From positions 1 through 64,000 of IMG/VR virus record IMGVR_UViG_3300048442_000818: a DNA stretch of 64,000 nucleotides; one strand, 5' to 3'. The notes under the pieces are model-generated. The model had not been told where the DNA came from and ran no database searches. It saw only the letters and a list, made by a program, of their open reading frames with translations. Positions 24,221-61,639 of this stretch are shown piece by piece. Every line of letters begins with the position of its first letter. Positions within the stretch are counted from its first letter, which is position 1. The translations under genes were made by a program, and so were the position numbers. The stretch is from a virus.

Positions 24221-24283
24221 CCATTAGGGATAATCAGTTCTTTCTTTGGTTTTGAACTGGTTATCCCACAACAGGAGATTGAT

Positions 24284-25021: not shown

Positions 25022-25051
25022 CTACCTACCTTTGCAAAGGAAGTAATTATC

Positions 25052-25792: not shown

Positions 25793-25842
25793 GTTTTAGG
25801 GGGTGTATTACACCCCCAACTCTCACCTAAACAGGATGAGAT

Positions 25843-26664
25843 ATGTGGACAATCGAATTACCAATCCGAGTACCAATATCCAAAAAGAAGTTTTTCCTAA
25901 TCAATTTGAATATGTACCGTAATGCTCACTTCCAAACACTGAACAAAGCTAAAAAGGTGTTTGCTGAACAGGTATCTCCGTTATTAAAAGGAATACCACA
26001 CATGAGCGGTTGTACCATGGAATTTGTTCTATATCCTGGTTCCCATCGTCTATGTGATGTGAGTAATATATGTTCAGTCGTGGATAAGTTTTTCTGCGAT
26101 ACGTTGGTAACTTGTGGTCATTTACCTGATGACAACTACAATTACCTAACTGATATACGGTACAGGTTTGGAAAGGTGGATAAAATGAATCCTCGGGTTG
26201 AAGTCACTATTTCACCAGTGGGGGAAACCTCACCCATTAATCAGAATCAAAAGGAACAAGACATGCAAATCATCCTCGTCCAAGCCGAAGTAGAACAGGC
26301 TATCAAAGATTACATCAGTGAACGTCTCACTCTCAGTGATGGTACTGAAATCCAAATCGATCTGTCCGCTACTCGTGGTGCAGATGGTATTAAAGCTACC
26401 ATCGATTTGGTTGAAGGCCCCTCTCCTGTGGTAGAGAAAGACAAAGGTGTAAGTACCGATCAACCACAGAAAGCAGAAGCACAGGTTAAAACTGAAGAAG
26501 TAAAGTCTGAAGAGCCAGAAGCAGTTGAAGCCCCTGCTACCAAAGAACCAGAGCCAGATGCTGTTGAAGCTGTTGAAGCTAGTGAAGGCAAAGAAGAAGA
26601 TAAAGAGGAAGAGGTTAAACCAAAAAGCCTATTCTCTAATCTGAGTAAGCCTAAAAATAACTAG
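25843..26664 (+). CDS. RusA-like Holliday junction resolvase fused in frame to an N4 gp46-like domain with an acidic tail
   Basis: NLNMYRNAH, DVSN...KFFCD...DDN, NPRVEV. Internal RBS AAGGA + ATG at 26263 (MQIILVQAEVEQAI). Confidence 0.75.
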   Translation: MWTIELPIRVPISKKKFFLINLNMYRNAHFQTLNKAKKVFAEQVSPLLKGIPHMSGCTMEFVLYPGSHRLCDVSNICSVVDKFFCDTLVTCGHLPDDNYNYLTDIRYRFGKVDKMNPRVEVTISPVGETSPINQNQKEQDMQIILVQAEVEQAIKDYISERLTLSDGTEIQIDLSATRGADGIKATIDLVEGPSPVVEKDKGVSTDQPQKAEAQVKTEEVKSEEPEAVEAPATKEPEPDAVEAVEASEGKEEDKEEEVKPKSLFSNLSKPKNN

Positions 26665-26685
26665 TACAGTTATTTTATAGCAGAT

Positions 26686-26716
26686 ATAAAAAGCCCCCTG
26701 TAAGGGGGCTTTTTAT
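26686..26716. terminator. bidirectional intrinsic terminator
   Basis: ATAAAAAGCCCCC-TGTAA-GGGGGCTTTTTAT, perfect 13-bp stem. Confidence 0.9.
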
Positions 26717-26728
26717 TTGGAGAAGTAA

Positions 26729-26965
26729 ATGAATACTTATTATCATTTTCAACGTAGAAAACTAAAATCCTGGTATTCAATAATTATTGAAACAGATGAG
26801 GAAAACGAAAGTAAATATGTGTTCTTTACATCAAAAATACATAAGACAAAAAAACTTAAATTACCTATTTCATTTTCATTAGAATTTACAGATCAACAGA
26901 TACTTAATGATCGTGATTTAGGAACTCAGTTATATAATAGATATGGAACAGATATTACTGAATAA
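26729..26965 (+). CDS. AT-rich hypothetical protein (78 aa)
   Basis: GGAG RBS; ORF fills the space between two terminators exactly. Confidence 0.65.
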   Translation: MNTYYHFQRRKLKSWYSIIIETDEENESKYVFFTSKIHKTKKLKLPISFSLEFTDQQILNDRDLGTQLYNRYGTDITE

Positions 26966-26996
26966 AAGCCCCCTATCCTTGGGGGCTTTTTATTTT
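26961..26996. terminator. bidirectional terminator at the convergence of + and - gene blocks
   Basis: AATAAAAGCCCCC-TATCCTT-GGGGGCTTTTTATT. Confidence 0.9.
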
Positions 26997-26998
26997 GG

Positions 26999-29900
26999 TT
27001 AGTCCATCAGACTATACCAGGGGTTCAGTTCCCAACTGTTCCAACCCATTTCAGGACCAATTGAGTAACCAAGACTACCATCCATAGCTTGAGTGAAGAT
27101 GTTATCATTTACTGGTAAACCAACACTGCTGGGTGCAGGTAGAGTTGATGCTACTAAGAAATGTAGAGGATTGTTTCTAAGAGTACTTAAGGCAATCTTA
27201 GCAATACGGATCTTGTAGTTGTAAAACCACAGTAGACCCATATTCTCCATATACCCTCTCCAACGTCCCGGTAAGCGATCATAGTTCGCAAACTCGGTAG
27301 TTACCCTACCCAAAGCATCAGCACTACTCATTTTCTTACGTTGAGTTAAATCATCGTAGAGTACTGCTTTAGCTACAAAGTCACTGTACTGTACAGACTT
27401 TTGAAGAGCCTGGAACAGTGGAGTGTCTTTCATGATTAAACCATACCGGGCAGCCGTTCTGAGTTTGGGGGGCAGCTTATCAATCTGCTTACTGAAGTAG
27501 CTGTACAGATTACCAGTAGTCAGTTCCAGATCTTCAGAAGACATACCGATATCCGCAATAGTGCTGAATTCCCCTGCCTGGATCAAAGGCCAGATACTCA
27601 GACGCTGATTAGAGTCAGTGATGGATCGGATCTCAGCACGCAGTTTACGCTCCCGTACAAAGTCTTGGCCTACCGCCCTGAGTTCAGCTTCCAAATCAAT
27701 CTGACGTAAGCGGTTCTTCACATAAGCATTGATCTCTACCAGCTTAGCTGGATACCCACGTTTGATATCCCGTACCGGTACACCTCTACTCACCAACTGG
27801 TAAGTGGTTGAAATGAAGTTATACACCGGTACTACCACCGATCTAACAATAATGTTAGTACGAATATCAGACATTATATTTTGTGTGAATTGTTCACCTT
27901 TCACTAGAGTTTTATAAGCATCTGGTCCCATTAAACCAACAAAGAAGTTTCTCCAAGCTTCATTAGTTAATGGATCTCTGTTGTTGCTATTGGTCCAGAA
28001 ATCACCAACAGAAGGGTTACGATAACCTACTGCATCTTCTAGCATATCTTTACGAACCCAGAATTCATCCCCAAATTTGCGATGAATATAATCTCTAGTA
28101 TCGTCAGAGAATAAATTCACAGCATCTCTTTGTACTGGGCTAAGATTAGAACCAAAAAGGTTCACATACTCGTTGATTTTATCACGGCTAATTTTCATAT
28201 CAGCCGTATACATATCATGGAGTCTATCAATAGAAGTCTCGTTGAAAATTTGAGACATCTTTTCTTCAACCTGACGACCTCGCCAAACACCTAACATCCG
28301 GCTTAGGTCTTGTGATTCAGGTTCCAAACGGGCTTTCTGTGCTGGATCCACTGACTGCTCGTAAGCAAAGATTTGGCCTCTCTCATCGAATACAGGCATC
28401 AGGTTCTCAACATCACCCTGTTCTTGAGACAGTCTGCGAGTGATTCGGGTCACATCAGCACGCCCAAAGATACGACCTGCCACCAGATCAGAGGTGAGAC
28501 CTGTATGGGGATCAACTCCTGAAGCCGTACGGTTGATGTTCTGAATAAAGCCTTGAGCATAAGCAGTACGACCAGAAATAGGAGTAAAGTAGTAGCTCTT
28601 GCTTGAGCGTCGGTTATCCACATTACTACCGTTATACGGACCCATGTTCACATAACCACGGATCCGCATATTGGACTCCTGGGCATTCTCTTCAATACGT
28701 AGAGATGCACCAGGGCTTTGCTCAGCCGGTATATGGCCTTTGTAGTGGTTCACCAGGGCCTTACCCTTGTTTGCCTTACGAAGCTCTGTTCTACGCTGTC
28801 CTTGAAGGTATCCCAGCACGAAGTTGAGACCATTGCTCTCATCCTGAACCAAGGAGGCCATAGCCTGCTTATCCTGGGTGGATAAACCATCCACAGCGTA
28901 CAGAGTGATCAGTTGATCAATAGACCGTTGTATGGAGCTGTCAGGTGCCTTCCAGCCTGCTTGTCTGGATTCACCAAATAGGTTTGAGATCGCATAAGCA
29001 TTACGAAGCAGACTGACCCCTGTTTTACCGGTGTTCATGAAAGTGGCAAGTTGCTTCATCTTTCTTTGGTAAATAGGCCAGTGAGCAGTATCACTCTGCT
29101 GAATGAGTCCTTCCAGATCGTTGATCAAAGCATCCAGTGAAGTTTGGCTCTGGAATAGATCCACGATATCTTGCGCAGGCATTGTTTCCATCAGGGCTGC
29201 CAGATCCGTTTTACCCATAGAACGGTACATTGAGGACCATTCTTCCTGAGACAGCTTTCGACTGAATTTGTTATGCAGCACTCGTGGAATTTCATCTCTA
29301 AAGTTCTGACGTAATTGCTGCACTGCTGCCCTGACAGTTTTGATCATGTCATAGACTTGAGCATTGCCTTCGGTACGATCTACAAGGTTGTTCACCAAAT
29401 CATAGAACGGCTTCCAGATCCGACCACGGTTCATTAATCCCATCAGTTCTTGGGATACCATGTCGGCTCGTTCTTCAGAGGCAATGGACGAAGCCAGCTT
29501 TAGGAAGTTACCTGCGAGTTTAGTTGGAAGACTCTGGGATTCCTGTCCTTTGGTTCCAAGTTTGTAACCGGTATCTGCAAGGGTTTGCATACCGTTTACC
29601 ATCCAATCGTTTACAGCGTCATATTTATTACCAATCTTATCTGTTACCTCGCGGATAGTGGTCTGCTCATCCAAAGCAGCTTTGGTAATCTGATTCATCA
29701 AATTATCCATAGCCGCTTTGACATTGGCAGCATCACGCTGACCTGACATACGATTTGACAGTGAATCTGATGCAGTGACCAATAAGTTATCCAAAGCAGC
29801 ATCCATAGTTTTTTGATCTGACTTAACAGATTTTGGAACCTGCATATTTGCTAAGATATCTCTAAACTCTTGGTTCACAGTGGATAGTGCAATGAACACA

Positions 29901-32900
29901 GGTAACAGAGTAGTGCGCCCATATGCATCTGTTTGACGATTTACTCGACCCAAAATAGTGTTGTATTTTTCTTGCGCATAATAGCGATCAGCATCAGGGT
30001 TACGAGAATTCTCTGGCATAAAGCTATCAACACTCAGGTTTTTAGTTACATGAGTGTATAGCTCCTGCATTTGAGCCAAAGCGTTAGGATCCAATTTAGC
30101 TTCAGTAGCCAGAGTAGCTACGATTGTTTTGAATGTGGTGGCTTCATTGATATCCATATTGAAGTGAGCACTTACTGCATCATTCAGAGCATCAATGGCT
30201 ACTTGGCCTGATTCTGAAAGGAGGCGGTTCTGCTGCACTTCGCGTTCGGTATCGGGATACTCATCTAAGAGATCAACAATCTTGGTTTGAAGAGCATTAC
30301 GGATATCTCGTAAGCGGGTATTATTCCCATAGGTTGCATGGAATAACGTACCTTCCTGGAATACAGAAGATAGATTTGGCTGAGTACGAATAATGATACC
30401 GGTGTTGAATTGTAGATTACTCAACACATCATCAGCGTGTTTAGGAGCGTGCTTACGACCCCAAACTAATTTCTTGATTTCTTGCCACAGATCTTTAGCA
30501 AGTTGAACTAACTTGTTCGTTTTTGTTTTCTTCAGTCGATTAGTGATCTGTTCGTTAGTAAGACCCCATGCCATAAACTCGTTAAGGGCTTTAGCCTGTG
30601 AGGCAGCAGGATCCATATTCAGATCATTCTGAGCACTCTCAATAGCAGCTCTAGCATTATCAAATGCCATGTACATTTCGTTAGGTAAACCACTTTCCAG
30701 ATCCATGGAAAGAAAATCATTGAGCATGATCTCCATTCGCTCAATAGCCCTTCTTGCTTCTGGATCCACTTTTTCACCACGATAATATGAAAGCAGTGTT
30801 TCATAGGTAGAAGCGTGAACCATTTCGTGGACCAAGGTTTCAGTGGTTGGGTTGATCAGATAAATCACCCGTTCCGCTACTGAAATCACACCGTGAGCCG
30901 TAGCATCTCCCGTGTTAATTGAACTCAAGCCAGTTTCACGTTGGTATGCAGCAATTTGCTCAGGTGTACCAGCAATGATTTTGTAATCTTTGGTTCCCAG
31001 ATTACGAATGATTTGAGCATAGATATCTCTTTGTGGTTGGGTCATGTTGACCAACCGACCGAGATTTTTCAGGGCTGTCCAGCTAATTACACGTACACCT
31101 GAAGCTTTATGTTCACGGCCCACTTTCTGAATATCTTCAGACATGCCATCAGCTACAGGAGCTTCTTCTGTAGCTTGCTGTTTGCCTGAAATTTTCTCTT
31201 GATAACGAGCATTCAATTCATCAGCAATTTGTTCAGGTGTCATCTGTGCATCAAGAGTTACAGTTCCATTCACATAAGGTGAGGCAGCACCAGCCATATG
31301 ATCAATAGAATGAAGAACATCACTCATTACCTGACGACGAATAGAGACACTATCTTCCGCTTGCTGAAGAAATTTACCTTTCCTATCCAACATATCCAAG
31401 ATAGCTTGAGAAGTAGCTACTTCTTCTTCTGGATCCAGATAAGGAAACAAGGCACGGGTAAAATCTCTATGCATCGGTGTATCTTTCACCTGCATATCAT
31501 TCTTTAACATATCTTCGATTAGATCTTTTGATTTCATAAATTGTTTATAGGAATCATTGACTGCCTTAAACGGATTACCATTGATCCAGGAGTCATACAC
31601 AGCCTTATTGGCTTTTTCACTGTATTCAGTGATTTTATCCAAAGGCATGTTGATACCATCAAAGATATCAAGGGTATTGTTCATTTCAGTATCCAGAGAA
31701 GTTCTCTGGATCATGTTAGCGTCACCCATACCAATGGTTAGGAACGGAATACCCGCAACACCAGCATTGGCTGGGGCATAAGCGTAAGCATCCGTTCTCA
31801 TGGTTCCATCAAGAGCACGACTGAATGCTGGACCACCTTCAAGCATCTGAGTCTTAGCAATTAGAAATACTTGACCTTGTGTTTGAACCAAAGGAGATAC
31901 TTTGAATATTTCTTTGTAGATTGCAGTGAAGTCTTTACGAGAAAGGAAATCACCAGGACGGTAGGTAGGATCATTTTTCTTACGATCCTCTAACCGTTCA
32001 TTAATCAATCTACGGAACAGATACTCCAAAACAATAGACTGTGATTGGGTTGCTTGACGGATTTTATCAACAGACCTCATAAGAGGAGCACCAACTGTAT
32101 CTTCAATACCAAACCGCAGAGGTCTAACAAAACCTTCAAGCATGTTTTGTTTGATACTTTGGATCTGTTCTGGTGTAAAAGTGAACTCTACTGGATCCGC
32201 AGACTGACGTGTGCGATCTGAAGGTTCTAAGAAGTATTCACCACTTCTCTGGTTATAGCGTATTTTATTGGCTAACAGGGTATTTAAAGCATCAACAAAC
32301 TGACGACCCTGTTTTTCAGGATTTGGTTCATTAGGGAATAGAGCTTCACCCAAGGTAATTTTAGGATAAGCTTCTCTTGCCTGGGCAAATTGAGACATTT
32401 TACTGTAAATGTCTTTCACCATTTGGGATGTAAGATTACCAGCAATACCTGAGATTGAAGAACCATACACCAAAATGGTAAGTGGGTTCTTGGCAATACC
32501 ACGGTCAAGCTCAAAGGATCCTGGCTCACCTAATTCAACATCACCGTTGTACTTAACACCCGGTAATGTGACATTCATCAATGTCATCAATGCCTTAACG
32601 TTACCTAGTAGCCCATCAGATTTCTTATTACGACCCAGTACATTGATAAGGGTACGTAGATGCTTATCTGAATTGATCGTAGCTGTTTTGTACAAATCAA
32701 CAGGATCTCTTTGGCTGAGTTCAGCCATAGTTTGGCGAGTGCCGATAGAGACACCACCTTTAGAAATATTCTGGATCCACTCAGGAGTAAACCGGCCTGG
32801 GGTCATTAACATCATAGCGTTGATTGGGCCATCGGTTACACCATCCCCCTCAAGATATATTGAGGTACGGAAAGATTCTCTCTCACCTAACGGAGTTTGT

Positions 32901-35900
32901 GTTAACCGTGCGTATTCCATAAGAGCATTCAAAGCTACAGGCGTAACATCAATACCCGCAGAATCAAGATGACCCTTCAGAATATAAGCATCCAGAGGAT
33001 TTACCTCAGTAGTTATTAATGAGTTGGTATCAGTGCCACTTACCCAATCGTTGATCAGATCCAGAGCAGGGACCAAAGGACCAGTAAGTAAGTTTTGTAC
33101 TTGCTCAACTGTATCTTCTAAAAGTTGATTATGAACTTTAATATCTAATGCTTGACCAATAGAAAGTAAGAAATGATTGTAAATAGTACTGTTTTCATTA
33201 GACAAATCAACAGTACTCCACGTAGGTAGAATAGCCTCACGAACTGCTTTATCTGATTGAGGGTTGTAAGCACCCAGCATCTGCATACGCCCAACACGGG
33301 AAATATTATAAGCGTACCGAATTGGCATCTCAGAAACCGATACACCTTCTGTTTCAGCACGGTTAACCATACGATCAACCGTATTAAATAGGTGATTGTA
33401 TGCAGAAGTAATAGTGCGATTTTTACCTTCAATAGATTTAGCATGGTTTATATTAAGGGTTTGATTATCACCCGCTGATTCACCAAGCAGAGTTAACATA
33501 CCCTCTCTACCGAAAGCAGAGTATAGATTTACCATTGGAATATTCAGATAAAAAGGTACTTTTTGTTTGTTCTCAATCGCTTCTTTTTGTTTTATAGTGT
33601 TAGCTACTTCTGGGTTATTCATCTGACGCTGGGCAACAGGAATTTCCTGATCACCAATGTAGAACACTTCTTCTGGACTAATTAGAACAGCATCATCAAT
33701 AGCAGTTGGGTAAGCATGAATTGGATTACCTTCCATTGGTGATACAAGATACCGATTAGGTGTTTTATCTGAATCCAGACCAAAGGATTTCAGGTCAACG
33801 GTAGTGACACCCATCATACCCGTATCAATAAAAGCCCTGATCATTTCAGCAGCTACTGCTTCAGGAATACCCTCAGAATAAGCAATGTCCGCATCAGCAG
33901 TAGCCGTTACACCCCAGTATTCTTTGATCTTGTTAGCAAGAGATCGCTTCACCTGCTCAAGACTCATACCCTCATTGAGAAGGCGTATGACCTCATAAGG
34001 TACGATTTCAGCGTCCACACCAGTGATAGCAGAGATGTCTGAATCATCCATTGGAGTGTGGTACTGGTTAGATGTCAGTAACCACTGAATAGCTGCTAAA
34101 GCAGCAGTCTCTAACAATTCTGGGTTGTATTGGTAACCTTCTGGTGTTTCATCAACAATATTAAGTGCTTTACCTCTAGCCCATCTTTGAATATCAGCAT
34201 CAGTTTCTAATACATCACGGATCGTTCTTTTATCTTTATTTGAAGACCATGAATAACGACTATTTAAGAAACGATCTAAATTAGCAGACATAGCTGACAT
34301 AAGACCACCGACAGATTGAACACTTTTAATCTGTGCAGCAGTAAGATCATTAGTTTCACTCTTTATCAGGTATTCACTTGCTTTTGGATCATTGCGTAAC
34401 AAAGTTTGATATTCAGATGCGATCTCAGGAGTTAAAGTGTATTTAGGGGTATTACCCATAAATTCAATCAAACTCCCGGATGAAGATAAAGCATCTTGAA
34501 CCAAGAGGATGGGGGATCCTTCTTGACCGATTAATCGAGTAGGTGCTTCTTCTGTGTTCGGTAATCTGAACACTTTTTTGAAGAAGTTTTCACCGCGAGT
34601 AAGTAGATTTGGGTATAGGGAATCCAAACCTGTAGTGGGGGTATCTACCGGTTCAGCCTCAGCAGAAACAGGTTCTGGGGTGGATTCCTCTATAGTGGTA
34701 TCCACTTCTTCCTGGGGCTGTGTTTGAACAGGCTCTGGATCAGGTTGAGTTTCAGTAACTGGCTCAGGTTCTGGCTGTGCTTCTTGTTCTTGCACCTCTG
34801 GTTCAGGTTCAGCCGGTTTATTGATCTCAGCAAACGCCTCCGCAGGGGTAAGCTTACGGATATCAGCATCTGTTAAGCCACGCTCTCTTAATTGAGCACG
34901 CATAGCTTGCGTGATCATTACGGGTACGCTGGCTGTAGTGGTTTTTTGTGTTGGCGTATCTTTTGTGATTTGCTGTACCTGATCGGGGTTAAATACTACA
35001 ACCTCCTCGTAACGGAACTCAGGGTCTGCATAAAGTAAGCCGTCATACCCTTCCGTTATTAAGGCATCACGTTGTTCTGGTGTGATGCCTGTAATCACTA
35101 TGGGATCATTATCTTTAACCAAATAAGGATTTTGAATGTTTACCCGGAAAGTGAGTGTTACTCCCCCTTCTTGCATTCCTTGGGAATATGCAATGTTTTT
35201 TGTAGTGTAAAACCCAACGAGAGTACCCGTGTTGTTTCCTATAAAATGCACAGTAGAAGGTCGTTCACGTTCAGCAATCACTTTAAAATTTTCTGCTTCT
35301 ACTGCCCTTGTTGTGTGGTAAGTCAACCCTTTTACTACGCTATCCGGAAAAATGTGATCGTATGCAGAAGTATCAGAAATAATCTCTGATTTTGGTTCAG
35401 CTTTTTTTAATTCAGAATTAGAGGTTGACTTATTTTGTTGATTTTTCGTAAATATTTCACGTAATCTTTCAGCATTAGCAACAGCAGTAGATTTACGACG
35501 TTCAAGATCAGATTTTATCTGCTCATACCTACTATCATTTTTATCTACACCGGGATTTATATTGAGATTACGTGCATATCTTTCTGCCCTAAGTACTATA
35601 TATTCTGCAAGATCAAAACGATCATTATTAATTGCTGTATTTAGTTGTGCAAAAGTTTCTGGGTTTGAGGGATCAATTACTGGAGCAACTACCGCATCAT
35701 ATAGAGTTTTTTCTATTTCTGGGCTGTTTTGTCCTGGCGCACGATCACCCCTTATATATATTTGTTCATTCTTTTCAAAATCTAATTGTGCTTCGAGAGT
35801 CTCAATACGTAGTTCTGACCCTGACTCAAGAGTAGATTCTGCCTGTTCTTGCTGTTGTTCTGGCTCTGCTGTTACTTCAGCTTGTCTTTGTCCAGGTACA

Positions 35901-38749
35901 ACACGCTCACCGGAACGGAAAGCATCAACAACTTCTTGTGGTGTGCCTTCTAATGCTGGATCTAAAAATAGGGGTTCAAATTTCTCATTACCAAGCTCTG
36001 GGAATGCATCAACTAAACCATTGTAAATATTCACAAGAGTTTCTTGCTCAGCTTGTACTGACTTAACCAGTTCTACTGATTTAGCTGATTTCCAGTTAAC
36101 ATACATGCCTTTGCTATCTGCTTTAGGGTTATTAGATGACAATAACCACTCACGGGTAACAGGTACCAATGACATATACGGAACAGCTTCAGCATTAGGA
36201 TTGCCGTTATCAAAGTGTTCATTAGCTGCTCTAACTTTGTTTTGCATGTGTTGTACAAACAAACCAAAGTCTTCCAGACGAGCACTAGCAATATCAGGAC
36301 GATTACCACGAACAGCCTCAACAATACCTTTGGTATGCTGTAAAGCTGATCTGGCATTCTCCCTTCTTGGATCATTACTTGCTACGATCTGACTAGAAAC
36401 TACGTCTTTAGCGGTTTGCAGACCACTATCAGCAATTTTCTTCTCAAGCTTTTGACGCTCACGAAGTAAGTCATAACTAACCTGTAATGCTTGACGTTGT
36501 GAGTTAGTTAACTCTAAACGACCCTCTTCAGCGTGCTTAAGAATACCTTCAATCACTTCAGGGTTGCCCTGGTCAGGCATTAGTTCAGCCATGGCAACGG
36601 CTGTACGGACACGGCGTTGACCTTCTTCCGTGTTGACGTTTCTTTCCGTAACAGGCTTCAGTGATTTAGTTACAGCACCACTTTTAGCGGATGCATCTAA
36701 AGCACGCATAGCTCTCATTACAGAAGCATTCTTTTCCAGATCCCAGATTAACCGGTCATATCGAAGCAATGTATCTCTGGCTTCGTGATCCTCAGGGATT
36801 TTTTCCATGATAGCCGGTTCAGCTTCTTTCAGGTCCAGAAGTGGCTGCATTAGCTCCTGTAGCACTGCTGCGGCTTGGATCTGTTCTGGGCCTTCGGGTA
36901 GGCGGGCTACTTCACGAGCTACTTCCTGAATTGCTTCAACACGGTTTGTGGCCGTGGCTGTCACTTCACGAAGATTTTCTGGCACAGATTCAGGGTCAAA
37001 CTGCATAGACTGAACCAAGGAAGAAACGTAAGCATTGCCTTCTGCACGCTCTTCTGGAGTGGCTTCTACGGTGTTGATCGTATCAGACAGGTCTTGTGCT
37101 GTTTCAGCCGTCTGTTGTGCTGTAGCGGCTGCCTGCTCTCTCATGGCTTCATCACCAACAGGTGATTGCTGCTGTACCTGCTGACGAATTTTGTCACCTC
37201 TTTCAACGATAGCGTTGAAAGCAGGCTTACCTGCTTCAATAGCAGAAGAGATAGCCTTACGAGTTATTTTGTAAGTAGGTTCAGCAACAGTTCTAGTTGC
37301 TTGGGCAGCAGCACCAGGAGATCTAATAGCACCGGCGGAAGTTACACCGTAAGCAGCACCTTCACCGACTTGACGGCCCACATCAGCAGATAATGACTGC
37401 TCAGGGTCAACATATTCCTGACTAGCTAAATTCTCGGCCACACCGCTGACAGCGCCCTGTAATGCTTCTTCTCCAGGTTCTCTAAGTAGAACATCACCTG
37501 CTAACTGTCGAGCGCCAACAGCACGGAAAGGTGCTTCACCGATTCGTGAGATTGTACCTAAGCCTGCTGCAATAGGAGCTGTTCGGGTAGCAGCATAAAG
37601 ACCAGCTTCATTAGCCAAATGTGTTTTGGCTTGTTCCTGGGCTGTTGCTTCATCCATACCCTGGTCAAGAAAGTTTTGCTTCAGTTCACGATAAGGTTGT
37701 GATGTCTGTTCCAGTTGTTCTACCGGAGTAGACATAATCTCGGTATTGACCTGTTGGTAGACACCACCACCTTCCATAGCACCAATAGCAGCAGGCCAAG
37801 CAGAAGCACTGGCTAAATCACGAGTACGATCTGCTACCCTGGCAGCCGACATAGTGTCAGTTGCCCTGTCCAATTCAGCAGCTAAACGGGTAGAAACACT
37901 TCCTGCCACACCACCTGTGACAGCCCGACCAATGGCTTTAAGACCTTTGGTAATGACACCACCACCAACAATGGAACCAACACCCTCAGATGTACCTGAA
38001 AGCAACATGGTTGGGTCCGACACAGCATTGGCAATGGCATCAACAGCATCACTACCGACACGTTTAAGACCAGATACTAGTTCACCATCACCGGCTGCTA
38101 AATTAGCTTGATACTCAGCTTCATTATCTCTTTCAGCTAAATTTTGACGAGCTTCGTAATTACGACGAGCAGCACTTAACTGTTCTGATTGAGTGCCTTG
38201 TACCCATTCATTAGCGCTATTCATACCGTCAGTAATAGAAGCACCTAATTCAGCATCCAGTAAACCACCGCCCACTGCGGCAATACCACCAATGCTATTG
38301 CCCACACCAGCGGCTATCCCAGAAGCAGTGTCCCACAGTGCTTCACCAGTTGTACGGTCATAACCGGCTCTATCACGGCTTACCTCGGAAGAAGCAGCAG
38401 AAAACTGTCTAATCAATTCTGGTGCATCAGCCCCGTACTTCAAATATAACGAGGGGGTATCTAGGGTTCTGAGATCTTCCTCTAATTCACCCATGCTGGC
38501 AGCACCCATTTGGTTACCACGGCCAGCAGCAGCTTGATACATATCGGGGTTTATTTGGGGTAGTACACTACTGATTTGATCTTGCTTTTGGGCTGAAGCC
38601 TGGGTAATAGAATTCTTCTTTTCTCCTAGAGCACGTTGGAAAGCATTGTTCATAATCCCCCGTTCATCCACAGATAGTGGAGTTGCTCCTTGAGTTGGGG
38701 TAGTAGAAGACGTAACTGCTTGATCCAAGAGGGTCTGAAAATCTGCCAT
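26999..38749 (-). CDS. virion-encapsidated RNA polymerase (N4 gp50-like vRNAP), about 3916 aa
   Basis: SRVGRMQ, EGDGVTDGP (motif A), RGIAKNPLTILVYG (motif B), IFDG (motif C). No Cys seen after Met30 (ATG 38749). Confidence 0.96.
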   Translation of the reverse strand: MADFQTLLDQAVTSSTTPTQGATPLSVDERGIMNNAFQRALGEKKNSITQASAQKQDQISSVLPQINPDMYQAAAGRGNQMGAASMGELEEDLRTLDTPSLYLKYGADAPELIRQFSAASSEVSRDRAGYDRTTGEALWDTASGIAAGVGNSIGGIAAVGGGLLDAELGASITDGMNSANEWVQGTQSEQLSAARRNYEARQNLAERDNEAEYQANLAAGDGELVSGLKRVGSDAVDAIANAVSDPTMLLSGTSEGVGSIVGGGVITKGLKAIGRAVTGGVAGSVSTRLAAELDRATDTMSAARVADRTRDLASASAWPAAIGAMEGGGVYQQVNTEIMSTPVEQLEQTSQPYRELKQNFLDQGMDEATAQEQAKTHLANEAGLYAATRTAPIAAGLGTISRIGEAPFRAVGARQLAGDVLLREPGEEALQGAVSGVAENLASQEYVDPEQSLSADVGRQVGEGAAYGVTSAGAIRSPGAAAQATRTVAEPTYKITRKAISSAIEAGKPAFNAIVERGDKIRQQVQQQSPVGDEAMREQAAATAQQTAETAQDLSDTINTVEATPEERAEGNAYVSSLVQSMQFDPESVPENLREVTATATNRVEAIQEVAREVARLPEGPEQIQAAAVLQELMQPLLDLKEAEPAIMEKIPEDHEARDTLLRYDRLIWDLEKNASVMRAMRALDASAKSGAVTKSLKPVTERNVNTEEGQRRVRTAVAMAELMPDQGNPEVIEGILKHAEEGRLELTNSQRQALQVSYDLLRERQKLEKKIADSGLQTAKDVVSSQIVASNDPRRENARSALQHTKGIVEAVRGNRPDIASARLEDFGLFVQHMQNKVRAANEHFDNGNPNAEAVPYMSLVPVTREWLLSSNNPKADSKGMYVNWKSAKSVELVKSVQAEQETLVNIYNGLVDAFPELGNEKFEPLFLDPALEGTPQEVVDAFRSGERVVPGQRQAEVTAEPEQQQEQAESTLESGSELRIETLEAQLDFEKNEQIYIRGDRAPGQNSPEIEKTLYDAVVAPVIDPSNPETFAQLNTAINNDRFDLAEYIVLRAERYARNLNINPGVDKNDSRYEQIKSDLERRKSTAVANAERLREIFTKNQQNKSTSNSELKKAEPKSEIISDTSAYDHIFPDSVVKGLTYHTTRAVEAENFKVIAERERPSTVHFIGNNTGTLVGFYTTKNIAYSQGMQEGGVTLTFRVNIQNPYLVKDNDPIVITGITPEQRDALITEGYDGLLYADPEFRYEEVVVFNPDQVQQITKDTPTQKTTTASVPVMITQAMRAQLRERGLTDADIRKLTPAEAFAEINKPAEPEPEVQEQEAQPEPEPVTETQPDPEPVQTQPQEEVDTTIEESTPEPVSAEAEPVDTPTTGLDSLYPNLLTRGENFFKKVFRLPNTEEAPTRLIGQEGSPILLVQDALSSSGSLIEFMGNTPKYTLTPEIASEYQTLLRNDPKASEYLIKSETNDLTAAQIKSVQSVGGLMSAMSANLDRFLNSRYSWSSNKDKRTIRDVLETDADIQRWARGKALNIVDETPEGYQYNPELLETAALAAIQWLLTSNQYHTPMDDSDISAITGVDAEIVPYEVIRLLNEGMSLEQVKRSLANKIKEYWGVTATADADIAYSEGIPEAVAAEMIRAFIDTGMMGVTTVDLKSFGLDSDKTPNRYLVSPMEGNPIHAYPTAIDDAVLISPEEVFYIGDQEIPVAQRQMNNPEVANTIKQKEAIENKQKVPFYLNIPMVNLYSAFGREGMLTLLGESAGDNQTLNINHAKSIEGKNRTITSAYNHLFNTVDRMVNRAETEGVSVSEMPIRYAYNISRVGRMQMLGAYNPQSDKAVREAILPTWSTVDLSNENSTIYNHFLLSIGQALDIKVHNQLLEDTVEQVQNLLTGPLVPALDLINDWVSGTDTNSLITTEVNPLDAYILKGHLDSAGIDVTPVALNALMEYARLTQTPLGERESFRTSIYLEGDGVTDGPINAMMLMTPGRFTPEWIQNISKGGVSIGTRQTMAELSQRDPVDLYKTATINSDKHLRTLINVLGRNKKSDGLLGNVKALMTLMNVTLPGVKYNGDVELGEPGSFELDRGIAKNPLTILVYGSSISGIAGNLTSQMVKDIYSKMSQFAQAREAYPKITLGEALFPNEPNPEKQGRQFVDALNTLLANKIRYNQRSGEYFLEPSDRTRQSADPVEFTFTPEQIQSIKQNMLEGFVRPLRFGIEDTVGAPLMRSVDKIRQATQSQSIVLEYLFRRLINERLEDRKKNDPTYRPGDFLSRKDFTAIYKEIFKVSPLVQTQGQVFLIAKTQMLEGGPAFSRALDGTMRTDAYAYAPANAGVAGIPFLTIGMGDANMIQRTSLDTEMNNTLDIFDGINMPLDKITEYSEKANKAVYDSWINGNPFKAVNDSYKQFMKSKDLIEDMLKNDMQVKDTPMHRDFTRALFPYLDPEEEVATSQAILDMLDRKGKFLQQAEDSVSIRRQVMSDVLHSIDHMAGAASPYVNGTVTLDAQMTPEQIADELNARYQEKISGKQQATEEAPVADGMSEDIQKVGREHKASGVRVISWTALKNLGRLVNMTQPQRDIYAQIIRNLGTKDYKIIAGTPEQIAAYQRETGLSSINTGDATAHGVISVAERVIYLINPTTETLVHEMVHASTYETLLSYYRGEKVDPEARRAIERMEIMLNDFLSMDLESGLPNEMYMAFDNARAAIESAQNDLNMDPAASQAKALNEFMAWGLTNEQITNRLKKTKTNKLVQLAKDLWQEIKKLVWGRKHAPKHADDVLSNLQFNTGIIIRTQPNLSSVFQEGTLFHATYGNNTRLRDIRNALQTKIVDLLDEYPDTEREVQQNRLLSESGQVAIDALNDAVSAHFNMDINEATTFKTIVATLATEAKLDPNALAQMQELYTHVTKNLSVDSFMPENSRNPDADRYYAQEKYNTILGRVNRQTDAYGRTTLLPVFIALSTVNQEFRDILANMQVPKSVKSDQKTMDAALDNLLVTASDSLSNRMSGQRDAANVKAAMDNLMNQITKAALDEQTTIREVTDKIGNKYDAVNDWMVNGMQTLADTGYKLGTKGQESQSLPTKLAGNFLKLASSIASEERADMVSQELMGLMNRGRIWKPFYDLVNNLVDRTEGNAQVYDMIKTVRAAVQQLRQNFRDEIPRVLHNKFSRKLSQEEWSSMYRSMGKTDLAALMETMPAQDIVDLFQSQTSLDALINDLEGLIQQSDTAHWPIYQRKMKQLATFMNTGKTGVSLLRNAYAISNLFGESRQAGWKAPDSSIQRSIDQLITLYAVDGLSTQDKQAMASLVQDESNGLNFVLGYLQGQRRTELRKANKGKALVNHYKGHIPAEQSPGASLRIEENAQESNMRIRGYVNMGPYNGSNVDNRRSSKSYYFTPISGRTAYAQGFIQNINRTASGVDPHTGLTSDLVAGRIFGRADVTRITRRLSQEQGDVENLMPVFDERGQIFAYEQSVDPAQKARLEPESQDLSRMLGVWRGRQVEEKMSQIFNETSIDRLHDMYTADMKISRDKINEYVNLFGSNLSPVQRDAVNLFSDDTRDYIHRKFGDEFWVRKDMLEDAVGYRNPSVGDFWTNSNNRDPLTNEAWRNFFVGLMGPDAYKTLVKGEQFTQNIMSDIRTNIIVRSVVVPVYNFISTTYQLVSRGVPVRDIKRGYPAKLVEINAYVKNRLRQIDLEAELRAVGQDFVRERKLRAEIRSITDSNQRLSIWPLIQAGEFSTIADIGMSSEDLELTTGNLYSYFSKQIDKLPPKLRTAARYGLIMKDTPLFQALQKSVQYSDFVAKAVLYDDLTQRKKMSSADALGRVTTEFANYDRLPGRWRGYMENMGLLWFYNYKIRIAKIALSTLRNNPLHFLVASTLPAPSSVGLPVNDNIFTQAMDGSLGYSIGPEMGWNSWELNPWYSLMD

Positions 38750-38800
38750 GAGAACGGTACCCAATGTGAATATATGTTTGGAAGTAACTCTACCATAGAT

Positions 38801-38836
38801 TTGAAAAAAAGAAGCCCCACCAATGCAGGGCTTCAA
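38801..38836 (-). terminator. intrinsic terminator upstream of vRNAP
   Basis: Minus strand GAAGCCC-N10-GGGCTTC followed by T7. Confidence 0.75.
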
Positions 38837-57657: not shown

Positions 57658-59247
57658 TCACACGATATAGGAAGATAGGCCATTTACTTCCCGTGGCTGC
57701 TGATCATCATCCCAAATTTCTGTTTCCATTGGTGAAGCAGGCACTGCGTCTGAGGGCTTCCAGGCTTTAATAAATCCAAGCATTGAAATGGCATCAATAC
57801 AGTCATCTTTACCTTTGATACCACTGATCGTTGCTAACCGGATCTGTTGCATGGTTTGGCCCATAATGGTGGAAGATTTCATCTCTTCCGGGAAATACAT
57901 TTTCCCAGCCTTAAACCAAGGCACCACCAAATTGAATCGGGACAGTTTATCTTGGATGGGTCGGATACCCGGTTGACCGCTCTTCTCTGAAGAAGCAAAG
58001 TTAAACCAAATATTTCGAGTTACCATCTCGCTCTGGAGCCAATTAATAAAAGCTCCTTGCTGACCTGTTACCTCAATACCAACTTGCTGTGGCTTGTACA
58101 ACTGTACTAAACGAAACAGGTCATTGATAGTGTGATCCATGGTCTGGCGCTCACAAATACCATCTACCCAGAACCAGTCACCATTAGCATTGTACGCCCA
58201 AACAAATATAACAGAGAAGTCTGCTGTTTGTTTTTTTGAGGTCGCAAAGTCAGTGGTAATGTAGAAATTGAAAATTCCCTGGTTAGACAACAACTTACTG
58301 CGACTATACCAACGAATTTCTTCGTCCTGTACTAGCCTTTCATCCGAAGAGCTAATACGTAACATCAGTTCCTGGTAAAACCCTGACAGTTTACCAGTCT
58401 TTTCTGCCAGATCGTACTGACTCTTAATGTAGTCGTAGGTAAAGCGATCTGGCCATGCACTGGAGAATTCTGATTCCTCACAAGGGAATTTCTCACAGAC
58501 AGGCCATACGTTCACGTCCCAAGCACCCGATTCTACTGCTTCAATCAAGATATCTTCCTGATTAAAGGGAGTACCATTAAACACCACTTTACGACGGTCA
58601 GGATCTAGCGCGTGGTTCACACCCTTATAAACAGTGTCCTTAATAGCCATCATAGATGCTTTAGAATTCGCATCATCATCACTGACCAAATCATCCAACA
58701 CCGCCAGCATCGGACGTTTACCAAAGATTTTGGTACCACGGAGACTTGTTTTGGCCCCGAACATACGGATACCCAACAACTCACCATTACGGTTACCAAA
58801 CTCAATATAGCTATCTGTAAAGTGACTATGAGGAATCCACTGTTGGGCAAACTCTGAGTTGTTATATCTAAACTCAATATTCTTACGTGCTGACTTAACA
58901 CCATTTTCCATAGAATCCGAAATGTAGATCATTCCATCCACAGGACCAAATCCAGGAATATAGTGGAACATACCTAAGAATAGACTTAGGTATTCCATAA
59001 ATAGAGTAGTCTTACTTGCACCCCGAAAACATAGATTAGCTACATAAGGGCTGGGTTCCACCAACTTATCTAGCATTTTTAGGTGTACAGGGGGGGTTCT
59101 GTGAGATTCCCCCTCTTTACCATTTACTAGCTTAATGAAGTTCATAAATGTCAGTGAGAATTCCGTAGGTACATATTCTCTGGAATTCAGACTATCGTAA
59201 TTAACTTCATCTAACCATTCATCGAGACTTTGCTTACGGAGTGCCAT
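57658..59247 (-). CDS. terL: terminase large subunit
   Basis: FRGASKTT, VLDDL, GTPF, TDFATS..ADFS, DDCID; GAAGGAG RBS before ATG 59247. Confidence 0.95.
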   Translation of the reverse strand: MALRKQSLDEWLDEVNYDSLNSREYVPTEFSLTFMNFIKLVNGKEGESHRTPPVHLKMLDKLVEPSPYVANLCFRGASKTTLFMEYLSLFLGMFHYIPGFGPVDGMIYISDSMENGVKSARKNIEFRYNNSEFAQQWIPHSHFTDSYIEFGNRNGELLGIRMFGAKTSLRGTKIFGKRPMLAVLDDLVSDDDANSKASMMAIKDTVYKGVNHALDPDRRKVVFNGTPFNQEDILIEAVESGAWDVNVWPVCEKFPCEESEFSSAWPDRFTYDYIKSQYDLAEKTGKLSGFYQELMLRISSSDERLVQDEEIRWYSRSKLLSNQGIFNFYITTDFATSKKQTADFSVIFVWAYNANGDWFWVDGICERQTMDHTINDLFRLVQLYKPQQVGIEVTGQQGAFINWLQSEMVTRNIWFNFASSEKSGQPGIRPIQDKLSRFNLVVPWFKAGKMYFPEEMKSSTIMGQTMQQIRLATISGIKGKDDCIDAISMLGFIKAWKPSDAVPASPMETEIWDDDQQPREVNGLSSYIV

Positions 59248-59920
59248 CTTCGGTCTCTCCTTCAATTAATCTCTGGTCAGCGATTTCTTTTGTGCTAACA
59301 CCCCCAGAGATTAGATTTCTTTGTTTTGTGGCCAGTTCTACCAACATATCCTTGAGTTCATTCATACCAGATTGTTCTCCCATATCAATGTTAACCAGAG
59401 GCCCTGCCTCTTTAGGCTTAGCTAGGTGGGTTAATACACTGTTTGCAGCTTGTGTACGGACCATCTCACTTTGAGCATTGGTCATCAAATCAACTTGAGT
59501 ATTGATCGCTTTCTGATATGCATCCTGGTTCAGTACCCAACTGGGTACCAATGTCTGTTCCAGGATCAGGTTTACCAACTTACCTCTATTGTAGGCAGAC
59601 ACGTAAGCAGCAATGTCTTTTGAGCTTGTCCCTTTTGCGACTAACTGAGCGTGCCTTTGAGGAAACGTCCTGAAGTAAGCATCTTGATTACTCATCCCCA
59701 TAAGCTTGAAGCTGACATAGGTCACAGCATGGAGGTAGTCTTCTGTTTTGAATTTCCCCTCCTGCAAAACTTTGGTGTAGGAGATAAAGTTCTCCCTCAC
59801 CTGCTCTGCAACAATTGGATCCTGAACAATCGTATTGATCTTGTTCACCAAAGAAGGGGTGGCAGCATTTTTCAAGTTTGCGGGGAGTGCCCGTGCTACT
59901 TGATCCACTGTCAAAGTCAT
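59234..59920 (-). CDS. terminase small subunit (N4 gp69-like)
   Basis: Synteny; AYFRTFPQR, AANSVLTHL. Confidence 0.8.
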   Translation of the reverse strand: MTLTVDQVARALPANLKNAATPSLVNKINTIVQDPIVAEQVRENFISYTKVLQEGKFKTEDYLHAVTYVSFKLMGMSNQDAYFRTFPQRHAQLVAKGTSSKDIAAYVSAYNRGKLVNLILEQTLVPSWVLNQDAYQKAINTQVDLMTNAQSEMVRTQAANSVLTHLAKPKEAGPLVNIDMGEQSGMNELKDMLVELATKQRNLISGGVSTKEIADQRLIEGETEDGTP

Positions 59921-59994
59921 TTCTAGTTACCTCTGTTCAAATATATGCTGTGGGGCGCTCAGACCACCCAAGGGTGGTCTTCGCGTTTTTGTCA

Positions 59995-60771
59995 TTATAC
60001 TCTACTTAACCTGATACTCAGAATAGTACAGTATTGAACCATTGTGCCAAGCTGATCTTTCAACAGTTTTTGGTCTTCTTCAGGTAGCTTATTAATAGTG
60101 TCACCTACCAAAAAAGCCTCTAATTTACCGATCTTCTGATTAAGCTCAGCGTATTCTTTACGCAAACGATCTGCATAAGTGGCCCCGGTACTGTCAAAAG
60201 CCTCATAGCTTTGCTCAAAGACATCTTGGGGGGACCAGCTCACGTAACCGCCAAACCCATCTACGTTCTTGGCTCCACCATCGGCGTACATCACCAAATA
60301 ACCAGGATCATCCCCATTTTCATCAGAAGGCAGTTCCCAACTACGGAGATCGTTATACGTCTGACGACTCATCGGTACCGCATAAACTACCTTAGTACCG
60401 ATATAGGTCTTTGGATCCCCAAACTTAAACAGGAGGTCATCCATGCTTAGTGGGGTAGACTGTTCTACCAGACTGGCTTTGTTCCGAAGGGCATACCCTT
60501 CCAATCCCCAGATCTTTTCACGGGCATTCTTACGAGCCACGTCCCGGCCCACATCTGCATCAAAATTGGCAGGGCTGGCACAGGCACTCTCACCCGTCAC
60601 GGTGTACCCATTCTTCAAGGTAAGCAGACAGATCGTCTGACAGGTACCAGGGAAGACGTAGTAATCCTCAGTTACAATCTGATCATCCACGTCGCTAGGC
60701 TTGATCCGAGGAGCAGTAAGACCCTTGCTCTGGATCATCTCTTCAATCGTATTTTCCTGTTCAGTACTCAT
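59995..60771 (-). CDS. three-domain protein: N4 Gp49/Sf6 gp66 family + YIGTK...SWSP domain + crAss001_48-like helical domain
   Basis: TICLLTLKNGYTVTGESACASPANFDADVGR; TYIGTK..PM..GYLVMY..YVSWSPQDVFEQSY; RLRKEYAELNQKIGKLEAFL..QL.TM.QY..IL..R; AGAGG RBS before ATG 60771. Confidence 0.85.
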   Translation of the reverse strand: MSTEQENTIEEMIQSKGLTAPRIKPSDVDDQIVTEDYYVFPGTCQTICLLTLKNGYTVTGESACASPANFDADVGRDVARKNAREKIWGLEGYALRNKASLVEQSTPLSMDDLLFKFGDPKTYIGTKVVYAVPMSRQTYNDLRSWELPSDENGDDPGYLVMYADGGAKNVDGFGGYVSWSPQDVFEQSYEAFDSTGATYADRLRKEYAELNQKIGKLEAFLVGDTINKLPEEDQKLLKDQLGTMVQYCTILSIRLSRV

Positions 60772-60940
60772 GGTGTAACCTCTCTGTTGTGTTGTCGTCG
60801 AATGACACGTAGACTTTAGACCACATTTAGCCACCAAACAATACTTCACCACTAGGGTAAGAGGTAGACGGAGCCTATTGTCTTGTGCCAAGACCATCAG
60901 GAGTGTTGGCTATCTACTAATAACAAACAACACCTAAGAC

Positions 60941-60969
60941 TTGAACCAAGGGAAAAACGGGGCTAATCT
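60941..60969 (+). promoter_or_regulatory. candidate sigma70 promoter
   Basis: TTGAAC-N17-TAATCT. Confidence 0.45.
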
Positions 60970-60975
60970 CGTATG

Positions 60976-61115
60976 TGTTAGGCGTGAGAAGCGGCAACAG
61001 GCCCCAGCAAAGAGGTGGGCTGAATAACCCTTTGCAGGTAGAGCTGCCCTGCTAGCACAGCACCTCCAGGCAGTGATCTACTACTAAGCCCTCTACCCAA
61101 ATAGAGGGCTTTTTT
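60976..61115 (+). ncRNA. candidate structured small RNA
   Basis: Lies between the promoter-like site and a terminator; stems GCAAAG/CTTTGC and GTAGA-GCTGCC/GGCAGT-TCTAC; no credible ORF. Confidence 0.35.
61086..61115 (+). terminator. intrinsic terminator
   Basis: AAGCCCTCTA-CCCAAA-TAGAGGGCTT plus T run. Confidence 0.85.
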
Positions 61116-61135
61116 ATGCCCCATATAAAGTAGGT

Positions 61136-61234
61136 ACTCAGAATTCCCCTTCACGAATAAATCTCCTCCTCGCAGGGACTAGCGTCCCTGCTCAGTCGTC
61201 GCTTTATTTGCTCAGGGGAATTCTTCGCGTTTTG
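61136..61234. repeat. nested hairpin with a repeated internal-loop motif
   Basis: AATTCCC/GGGAATT, GAATAAA/TTTATTT and AGGGAC/GTCCCT stems separated by RCTCAG / CYTCRC pairs. Confidence 0.8.
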
Positions 61235-61297
61235 ATAAAAAAGAGTTGTAATGTGTGATTCTTGATGTAAGATGGAATCTCTAACCAACTAGGAGAT

Positions 61298-61639
61298 ATG
61301 AAAATGTTTACTCCCGCTTTCGAGAATGATGACGTGCTAGCTGCTCACACTACCTCCAAAAGAGGCCGTAAGCCTAGTGAATTGTTCGTACAACTTCGTG
61401 ATATGCCTGTATCAGACACTTGGTATGAAGTAGATGGTGAAGTATATCCTGATGCACAGAAATTCCGTGCTAAGGTATATCGCTATGCCAAAAACGGTGC
61501 CGGCAAATTCAAAGTCCGTGCTACTCCAGAAGGTACTTTCATTAAGAAAGTTTCTGGTCCGGGTTCTAATCAGGAAGTTGCACAAGCTACTCCCGACACT
61601 GAATCTGAAGATCAACATGATGGTCAAGCAGATGAATGA
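61298..61639 (+). CDS. hypothetical protein, possibly DNA binding
   Basis: AGGAG RBS; KRGRKPS basic motif; upstream TTGTAA-N16-TAAGAT. Confidence 0.75.
   Translation: MKMFTPAFENDDVLAAHTTSKRGRKPSELFVQLRDMPVSDTWYEVDGEVYPDAQKFRAKVYRYAKNGAGKFKVRATPEGTFIKKVSGPGSNQEVAQATPDTESEDQHDGQADE

Follow-up and report, generated by a model that had tools for sequence, protein, structure and literature searches.

The subject of this analysis is a gene in a DNA window of 64,000 nucleotides (positions 1 to 64,000 of IMG/VR virus record IMGVR_UViG_3300048442_000818), namely the open reading frame (ORF) P0001, located at positions 59995–60771 on the minus strand and encoding 258 amino acids (aa) plus a stop codon. 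The gene probably encodes a multi-module immune-signal sponge of an N4-like phage, in which an N-terminal Acb4 domain and a C-terminal Sequestin domain enclose a conserved middle domain. By itself, the gene is ordinary: it adds an example to the published class of multi-sponge fusions of N4-like phages, its variant with an inserted domain is common in databases, and a specialist would not be surprised by the fusion. The concrete and testable lead is provided by the middle domain, which is widespread but unnamed in Pfam, and whose partners are known sponge domains, except for stand-alone forms and a few proteins whose remaining part lacks a Pfam match.

Gene and Domain Architecture

An earlier interpretation made from the DNA letters (hereafter, the sequence-only reading) had described a 258-aa protein composed of three domains. 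The ORF was confirmed, its frame being open throughout the translation with no internal stop, and the proposed domain coordinates were right to within a few codons. When the protein was compared with Pfam, as that reading had suggested, both flanking domains scored far above the curated cut-offs. The N-terminal part, previously assigned to the N4 Gp49/Sf6 gp66 family, indeed belongs to the Acb4 family PF13876 (Phage_gp49_66; residues 23–98, positions 60478–60705, minus strand), with an E-value of 4.6e-27 and 94.8 bits against a cut-off of 27, the structural domain being wider (residues 1–104, positions 60460–60771). The C-terminal part, previously described as a crAss001_48-like helical hairpin, was identified as the Sequestin domain PF21825, formerly named crAss001_48 (residues 198–257, positions 60001–60180, minus strand; E 8.4e-18; 64.5 bits against a cut-off of 24.8; model positions 2–61 of 61). 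No Pfam match was obtained within residues 99–197. The PHROGs database divides the protein in the same way as Pfam, and its families phrog_9467 and phrog_872, both of unknown function, cover residues 121–194. NCBIfam contained no match for the whole protein.

The full-length AlphaFold2 model, based on an alignment of 59 homologues, reached a mean pLDDT (predicted value of the local distance difference test) of 94.2 and featured three folded domains. Residues 1–104 were modelled as helices, three strands and a long helix, residues 113–190 as a small beta-barrel with two short helices, and residues 199–257 as a helical hairpin, while lower confidence was limited to the short linker at residues 191–198.

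An alternative ATG is located upstream and in frame at position 60897 and would extend the ORF to 300 aa, as the interval 60772–60897 is open in frame. The 42 additional residues have no counterpart in the homologues, and because the homologues start at the position corresponding to 60771, the 258-aa form was taken as the gene and the 300-aa reading was considered unsupported. Direct inspection of the sequence also revealed a Shine-Dalgarno-like AGAGAGG (positions 60779–60785, minus strand) 7 nt upstream of the ATG at 60771, which therefore supports the start of the 258-aa form over the ATG at 60897.

Since phage N4 keeps Acb4 (gp48) and the middle domain joined to Tad2 (gp49) as separate genes, and since adjacent separate genes encode these domains in Enquatrovirinae and P22-like phages, it was considered whether the three-domain ORF could be an artefact, originating from a frameshift or from an assembly join of neighbouring genes. 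Such an origin is highly improbable. In addition to the uninterrupted frame, the architecture Acb4–middle domain–Sequestin was found to be common to approximately 70 independent homologous clusters from different samples, in which it is continuous and of similar length (250–272 aa, on contigs of 70–77 kb). Furthermore, the three-domain protein is carried by isolated phages, namely, Rhizobium phage RHph_X3_15, Pseudomonas phage Arace01 and Stenotrophomonas phage Philippe, and the full-length model is confident also where the domains adjoin. A megablast comparison of the gene with 50,697 phage records returned no match, i.e., no near-identical phage was present among them.

The Acb4 and Sequestin Domains

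That the Gp49/gp66 family includes the anti-CBASS sponge Acb4 had been stated in the sequence-only reading, and this agrees with the literature, in which PF13876 is described as the Acb4 sponge family (bioRxiv 10.1101/2024.12.30.630793), as well as with the structural match obtained. The structure of Acb4 from phage SPO1 (9E4W) was the sole significant PDB match of the protein, both by sequence (phmmer E 0.0011; profile E 1e-9) and by fold (Foldseek E 3.4e-4; template modelling (TM) score of 0.66–0.73 on the target; root-mean-square deviation of 1.5 Å over 69 columns). The domain features a fold of the order alpha-beta-beta-beta-alpha that resembles the dsRBD (a domain that binds double-stranded RNA) and is superposable on SPO1 Acb4, and it is 45% identical to the Acb4 half of Ab09 gp59 and 41% identical to N4 Acb4. 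SPO1 Acb4 has been described as a tetrameric sponge for 3'3'-cGAMP and related signals of the cyclic oligonucleotide-based antiphage signalling system (CBASS); 3'3'-cGAMP was bound by all of the eight Acb4 homologues tested, and members from phages of Gram-negative hosts additionally bind 3'3'-cAA, their specificity being different from that of the SPO1 protein (bioRxiv 10.1101/2024.12.30.630793). For N4 Acb4, binding of c-di-AMP at 111 nM and triggering of the PanDA guard system have been reported (bioRxiv 10.64898/2026.08.10.743972).

In the Sequestin domain, AlphaFold2 placed the two helices at residues 199–222 and 231–257, with pLDDT values of 91–98. Residues R202, E206, Q240 and R254 were invariant in the 59 three-domain homologues and, when aligned with the Sequestin half of Ab09 gp59, correspond to R, E, Q and R there. 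Their spacing (4/34/14) resembles that of R8, E12, Q47 and R61 in SequestinA (4/35/14), the comparison being one of spacing, made without an alignment to SequestinA. These SequestinA residues line the modelled pocket, and the activity of the protein requires E12, Q47 and R61, whereas the R8A substitution is still active (bioRxiv 10.1101/2025.07.12.664507). According to the same study, PF21825 was discovered as Sequestin because no other Pfam family is fused as frequently to Acb4 (91 fusions) and Tad2 (60 fusions); it binds 3'cADPR (ADPR, ADP-ribose), and 10 of the 13 members tested inhibited type I Thoeris, while type II Thoeris, CBASS and Pycsar were inhibited by none of them.

The closest characterised counterpart of the two flanking domains taken together is Ab09 gp59, a 147-aa Acb4–Sequestin fusion from an N4-like phage of P. 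aeruginosa, which also agrees with the statement of the sequence-only reading that sponge proteins fuse with one another. It forms a tetramer and binds 1''-3' gcADPR tightly, 3'3'-cGAMP more weakly and also 2'3'-cAA; its inhibition is strong for type I Thoeris and partial for type II-A CBASS, and it sets off Panoptes (bioRxiv 10.64898/2026.06.04.730250). The sequence-only reading had proposed that one polypeptide neutralises several nucleotide messengers. For CBASS and Thoeris, this proposal is well founded by homology, because the flanking domains are homologous to Acb4 and Sequestin and the Ab09 fusion binds both signals, although the combination was already published; its extension to Pycsar and His-ADPR found no support, in the case of Pycsar because of the above-mentioned results for the tested Sequestins.

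The Middle Domain and Its Kinship with RyR Tad

The middle domain (residues 120–190, positions 60202–60414, minus strand) is preceded by a short helix at residues 113–117 and was predicted to be a small beta-barrel that forms a homodimer. Modelled alone with AlphaFold2, it reached a pLDDT value of 94.8. It is the best-conserved part of the protein, the mean pairwise identity among the 59 three-domain homologues being 66%, compared to 49% for the Acb4 and 35% for the Sequestin domain. Residues Y139, R143, G157 and W179 were invariant in 145 sequences, and K127, R136, N140, W145, P148, E151, Y162, D164, N169, G175, Y176, S178, P181, F185 and Y189 were conserved in at least 90% of them.

A sequence-profile search of the PDB returned Acb4 only and nothing for the middle domain itself, and a Foldseek search of the domain against the PDB likewise provided nothing at E ≤ 0.001. 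A comparison with 48,161 chains by VIA-align gave a best Z-score of 4.3 to DUF1653 (3be3), followed by CarD/Mfd/UvrD Tudor-like, SH3 and CAP-Gly barrels, a range which the tool rates as a common arrangement only. Among predicted viral structures, the domain matched only its own family and one Yersinia phage protein labelled as 'RyR domain'. Three other candidates were rejected. The match to SPO1 Tad2 as a fold relative (E about 2, TM about 0.3) was not meaningful. An identity with 'PDB 6E3C', an extra domain excluded from a Tad2 survey, was dismissed, as 6E3C is the Dec decoration protein of phage L, featuring an OB-fold, and did not turn up in the fold searches. Lockin, an elongated beta protein forming hexamers, is absent from the INPHARED phages, whereas the middle domain occurs in about 130–150 INPHARED records. 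In the searchable literature, no naming or assay of the domain in its main-family form was found.

A relationship to a published protein became apparent when the middle-domain profile matched residues 2–68 of gp68 from Pectobacterium phage CB1 (hmmsearch E 3.6e-7; BLASTP 35% identity, E 6e-6). As judged by these sequence matches, the middle domain is homologous to the N-domain of RyR Tad, the published name of CB1 gp68, in which the C-terminal RyR Repeat12-like domain sequesters gcADPR. The N-domain alone (gp68 residues 1–86) had no activity against type I Thoeris, and in the crystal its beta1 extends into the other protomer, resulting in a domain-swapped dimer.

The homodimer model of the middle domain is in line with that structure. 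It obtained a score of 0.63, compared to 0.01 for the best of three controls. Such a score was attained by 20 of 30 proteins whose solved structure is a pair of one chain and by 1 of 23 with a single-chain structure, counts that hold only roughly because the analysis used its own alignment. The runs agreed in at least 84% of the contacts, with pLDDT values of 80–82, and the tightest contacts were predicted between residues 128–132 of one copy and residues 120–124 of the other, corresponding to the beta1/beta2 region. These modelled contacts are consistent with the published domain swap, and the model supports self-association of the middle domain without demonstrating it.

The RyR-Tad subfamily, represented by CB1 gp68 and a 70-aa ORF of EK8, keeps K127, the A-x-P-M motif, the GYLV-x-Y strand and SWSP-x-x-VF, but lacks R136, N140, R143, W145, P148, E151, D164, N169, G175 and Y189 as well as the loop of residues 163–175. 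The set from R136 to Y189 is accordingly dispensable for folding and dimerisation, because the subfamily achieves both in the crystal without it. As a consequence of these differences, the negative anti-Thoeris result for this subfamily is not automatically valid for the main family.

Distribution and Fusion Partners of the Middle Domain

The motif YIGTK..PM..GYLV.Y..YVSWSP..VFE, by which the sequence-only reading had delimited the middle domain, was found to mark a large family, in agreement with the PHROGs matches and the confident model. When 1.84 billion cluster representatives (clusters at 50% identity) were searched exhaustively with phmmer, 1,377 matched at E ≤ 1e-3, of which 657 also reached E ≤ 1e-10, the protein lengths being 86–354 aa. 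Among the best 144 matches, Tad2 was present in 43, Sequestin in 43, Acb4 in 32 and the Acb2/Tad1 hairpin in 3; RyR Tad represents a further fusion partner, and the domain order varies between proteins. In the ESM Atlas, clusters were recovered for Acb4–middle–Sequestin (56 members), middle–Tad2 (68), middle–Sequestin (50), middle–Tad2–Sequestin (89) and middle–Acb2/Tad1 hairpin (121), as well as for stand-alone middle domains of 75–120 aa (58–166 members per cluster).

Furthermore, a pattern scan of IMG/VR confirmed at least 546 loci encoding the domain. Partners were tallied with four domain profiles for the middle-domain ORFs in the best 80 of these 546 loci. The combination middle–Tad2 clearly prevailed (65), followed by middle–Sequestin (5), Acb4–middle–Sequestin (4), Acb4–middle (1) and middle–Acb4 (1), and in the 4 remaining ORFs the middle domain was accompanied by sequence outside the four profiles. 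In about a third of the 80 loci, a separate Acb4 gene was located within 3 kb. The frequent fusion to DUF2829/Tad2, which the sequence-only reading had stated, was thereby corroborated, and it is further represented by the Tad2 proteins of N4 (gp49), KP8, 24-32N and Huey, of which the middle domain forms the N-terminal domain. The absence of DUF2829 from the protein studied here, noted in that reading, was also confirmed, as neither the protein (at E ≤ 1) nor the 73.8-kb genome contained a DUF2829/Tad2 match.

Several individual loci deserve mention. In N4 (EF056009; L005, 1606–2459), gp48 is the PF13876 Acb4 protein and gp49 comprises the middle domain and Tad2, so that the Pfam name 'N4 Gp49' can mislead, the N4 member of the family being gp48. 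Rhodoferax phage P26218 gp06 (L007, 1522–2067) and a protein of locus L018 (2941–3453) combine the middle domain with a common C-terminal domain of approximately 80 aa, which has no Pfam match and features the motif YAW-x-WHCNIAM; the two proteins are 55% identical over 151 aa. By fusion logic, this C-terminal domain is a candidate for an undescribed sponge-type partner. At L024 (271–732), the middle domain is followed by approximately 75 residues without Pfam match that are unlike the other partners. At L016 (3040–4064), a middle-domain–Sequestin gene directly precedes a gene that fuses WDGH (PF25311, E 2e-43) to Tad2, WDGH being a further domain that travels with sponges. In the records of Escherichia phage Huey (L003, 1492–2607), PP889499, PV933157 and PQ310662, the homologues of Acb4 and of the middle-domain–Tad2 protein are labelled 'anti-CRISPR protein', a label supported by nothing in this analysis. 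Clostridium phage CP51 (L008, 1498–1962) encodes a middle-domain–Acb4 protein and Pseudomonas phage phiAH14a (L009, 1495–1965) a middle-domain–Tad2 protein, in both cases between head-morphogenesis and scaffold/capsid genes. Sponge genes are therefore inserted in structural modules of these phages, as is the gene of this study beside the terminase genes. The middle domain also reaches phages of Gram-positive hosts, the hosts seen including Proteobacteria, Bacteroides and Clostridium.

Proposed Function of the Protein and Role of the Middle Domain

The domain identities, the folds, the conserved Sequestin contact residues, the homology of the middle domain to the N-domain of RyR Tad and a dimer model scoring above its controls were all computed here; for ligand binding, oligomeric state and inhibition of defence, we infer the behaviour of the protein from that of its published relatives. 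By analogy to these, the Acb4 domains would form a tetrameric core with four cyclic-dinucleotide sites, sequestering 3'3'-cGAMP, cUA and probably c-di-AMP-type signals as in homologues from phages of Gram-negative hosts. Two further dimers would be formed by the middle domains, which connect the two sponges, while the Sequestin hairpins would form two antiparallel dimers with four gcADPR sites for the type I Thoeris signal 3'cADPR (1''-3' gcADPR). During infection, the signals of CBASS and type I Thoeris would be depleted by such an assembly, to which guard systems such as Panoptes or PanDA would be expected to respond.

A number of observations weigh against this proposal. Of the residues known to contact the ligand in SPO1 Acb4 (K36, F48, E49, V56, Y57, F62, N63, I66, T70 and K81; mapped via the phmmer alignment), only 4 of the 9 that could be mapped are kept or conservatively replaced, namely, F48 (Y56 in this protein), F62 (F70), N63 (D71; a backbone contact) and I66 (V74), which represent aromatic and adenine-pocket positions. 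The others differ (K36 to C44, E49 to T57, V56 to C, Y57 to A and T70 to V), and K81 lies outside the aligned stretch. Since the guanine-reading K36 and E49 are replaced by C44 and T57, the ligand preference may differ from that of SPO1 Acb4; at the sequence level, membership in the Acb4 family is clear, but the contact residues do not settle the exact preference. In addition, the Sequestin half is only about 28% identical to that of Ab09 gp59, and the gene is located upstream of the terminase genes on the late-gene strand and, hence, outside the stretch between the primase and virion RNA polymerase (vRNAP) genes, the published anti-defence hot spot of N4-like phages (bioRxiv 10.64898/2026.06.04.730250). 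Finally, none of Acb4, Tad2 and Sequestin needs the middle domain to oligomerise, so that a purely structural role would not account for its presence, although a pure clamp is not refuted thereby.

Regarding the role of the middle domain, assembly or clamping only is the option to which we give most weight, albeit at less than an even chance. A third small-molecule binding site is a serious but somewhat doubtful option, the binding of a host or phage protein is unlikely, and any other role is more unlikely still. Three points may argue for more than a clamp: the highest conservation within the protein, the existence of stand-alone forms that keep the signature, and the loss of residues in the RyR-Tad subfamily.

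These points lead to a rather unlikely, but consequential, explanation in which the middle domain is a third anti-defence module, i.e., a small homodimeric sponge or, with lower likelihood, an enzyme, so that the protein would neutralise three classes of signals. Candidates for the third class are His-ADPR, N7-cADPR, cA3/cA4, cCMP/cUMP and a signal serving as decoy for guard systems. The fusion pattern (Tad2, Sequestin, Acb4, Acb2/Tad1 and RyR Tad) resembles the one that revealed Sequestin, the domain order is variable, and stand-alone clusters exist, nine stand-alone representatives keeping nearly all of the 18 near-invariant residues. Moreover, approximately ten near-invariant polar or aromatic residues of the main family are dispensable for fold and dimer, and no other part of the protein is conserved to a comparable extent. 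Against these stand the small size of 70 residues for a sponge and the position of the additional conserved loop (residues 163–175), which lies partly in the predicted dimer interface and may simply enlarge or strengthen the dimer. The sequence-only reading had put forward both the middle and the C-terminal domain as candidate anti-defence modules: the latter belongs to Sequestin, an anti-Thoeris sponge proven by experiment, whereas for the former the proposal found no support, its sole tested relative, CB1 gp68 residues 1–86, being inactive alone against type I Thoeris. A further explanation, which we regard as quite improbable, is that the domain serves as an SH3/Tudor-like adaptor to some host or phage protein, bringing the sponge to its target or shielding it, possible targets being a signal-producing enzyme, a sponge-sensing guard system or RNA polymerase. 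The structural resemblances are in fact confined to small SH3/Tudor-like barrels, several of which bind RNA polymerase (the N-domains of CarD/CdnL, the RID of Mfd and the C-terminal Tudor domain of UvrD/PcrA), and the very strong conservation, which extends over phages of Proteobacteria, Bacteroides and Clostridium, would be compatible with a conserved protein target. However, all Z-scores were at most 4.3 and rated as common arrangement rather than kinship, and Foldseek provided no hit at its threshold.

Tentatively, the middle domain, with the signature K-R-Y-N-R-W-P-E...Y-S-W-S-P in its main form, might represent an unrecognised autonomous anti-defence family. In that case, it might bind, as a small homodimer, either an immune signal or a guard component that senses sponges, and in at least five sponge families its role might have escaped notice under the labels 'linker' or 'N-domain of unknown function'. 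Such a family would offer a search hook for unknown sponge domains, for example, the C-terminal domain shared by P26218 gp06 and L018. If the domain has its own ligand or target, phages would carry a further, very common counter-defence activity; if it is a dimer clamp only, it would still serve as a cheap marker for new sponge domains by fusion, following the logic of the Sequestin discovery.

Genomic Context

The source virus record has a length of 73,830 bp and is 100% complete according to CheckV. It encodes a vRNAP ORF of 3,945 aa (26999–38836), and its large terminase is 72–77% identical to those of Erwinia phage phiEaP8, Pseudomonas phages Zuri and Arace01 and Rhizobium RHph phages. The source is an uncultivated N4-like (Schitoviridae) phage.

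On the minus strand, the sponge gene comes directly after a 526-bp non-coding stretch and is followed by a small-terminase-like gene (59234–59920) and the large terminase gene (57658–59265). Its location is probably at the right end of the genome; in several related isolates (RHph_X3_15, Philippe), the orthologue occupies an equivalent place near the right genome end on the terminase strand. A GC-rich hairpin (59961–59980; 8 pairs, 5 of them G-C) lies between the stop codon and the small-terminase-like gene. The scan called it terminator-like on the plus strand only, and in the minus-strand reading of the gene no U run follows the stem.

In N4, KP8, G7C-like phages and Ab09, Acb4 and Tad2 genes directly precede the vRNAP gene. 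No recognisable sponge gene was found in the genome studied here between the primase gene (22073–24220) and the polymerase gene. This hot-spot stretch (window positions 22073–26998) holds only a Sak4-like AAA_24 gene and two ORFs without Pfam match (25052–25792, 246 aa; 25843–26664, 273 aa).

The upstream non-coding stretch (60772–61297) is strongly structured on the minus strand, with a minimum free energy of −168.9 kcal/mol (z −4.4 versus shuffles), and one of its elements is a long imperfect hairpin closed by GAATTCCCCT/AGGGGAATTC. At 61086–61111, it also contains a hairpin of 11 perfectly paired bp, which scored as a terminator on the plus strand. An Rfam scan of 59800–61500 returned nothing near any gathering score. 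The stretch may hold the physical genome end or phage promoters.

Comparison with Known Phage Sponges

Like Ab09 gp59 and the fusion of phage YH6 (bioRxiv 10.1101/2025.07.12.664507), the protein originates from an N4-like phage and features Acb4 and Sequestin as its two sponge domains, in this order. In Ab09 gp59, Acb4 (residues 1–83) and Sequestin (residues 84–147) are directly joined, whereas the protein of this study possesses approximately 100 additional residues (99–200) with the middle domain; moreover, its gene is situated beside the terminase genes and not in the primase-to-vRNAP hot spot. With SPO1 Acb4 (9E4W), it shares the family PF13876 and the dsRBD-like alpha-beta3-alpha fold, but the identity is only about 23%, K36 and E49 are not conserved, and the SPO1 protein is a single-domain protein of 96 aa. 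The N-domain of RyR Tad (CB1 gp68, residues 1–68) is homologous to the middle domain, and its swapped dimer is in line with the dimer model obtained here, while the RyR Repeat12-like domain PF02026 matches CB1 gp68 and not the window protein. Finally, N4 gp49 and other two-domain Tad2 proteins (DUF2829, PF11195) carry the middle domain at their N-terminus (hidden Markov model E 2.5e-33); of these proteins, only this accessory N-domain is present in the protein described here, where it is placed between Acb4 and Sequestin.

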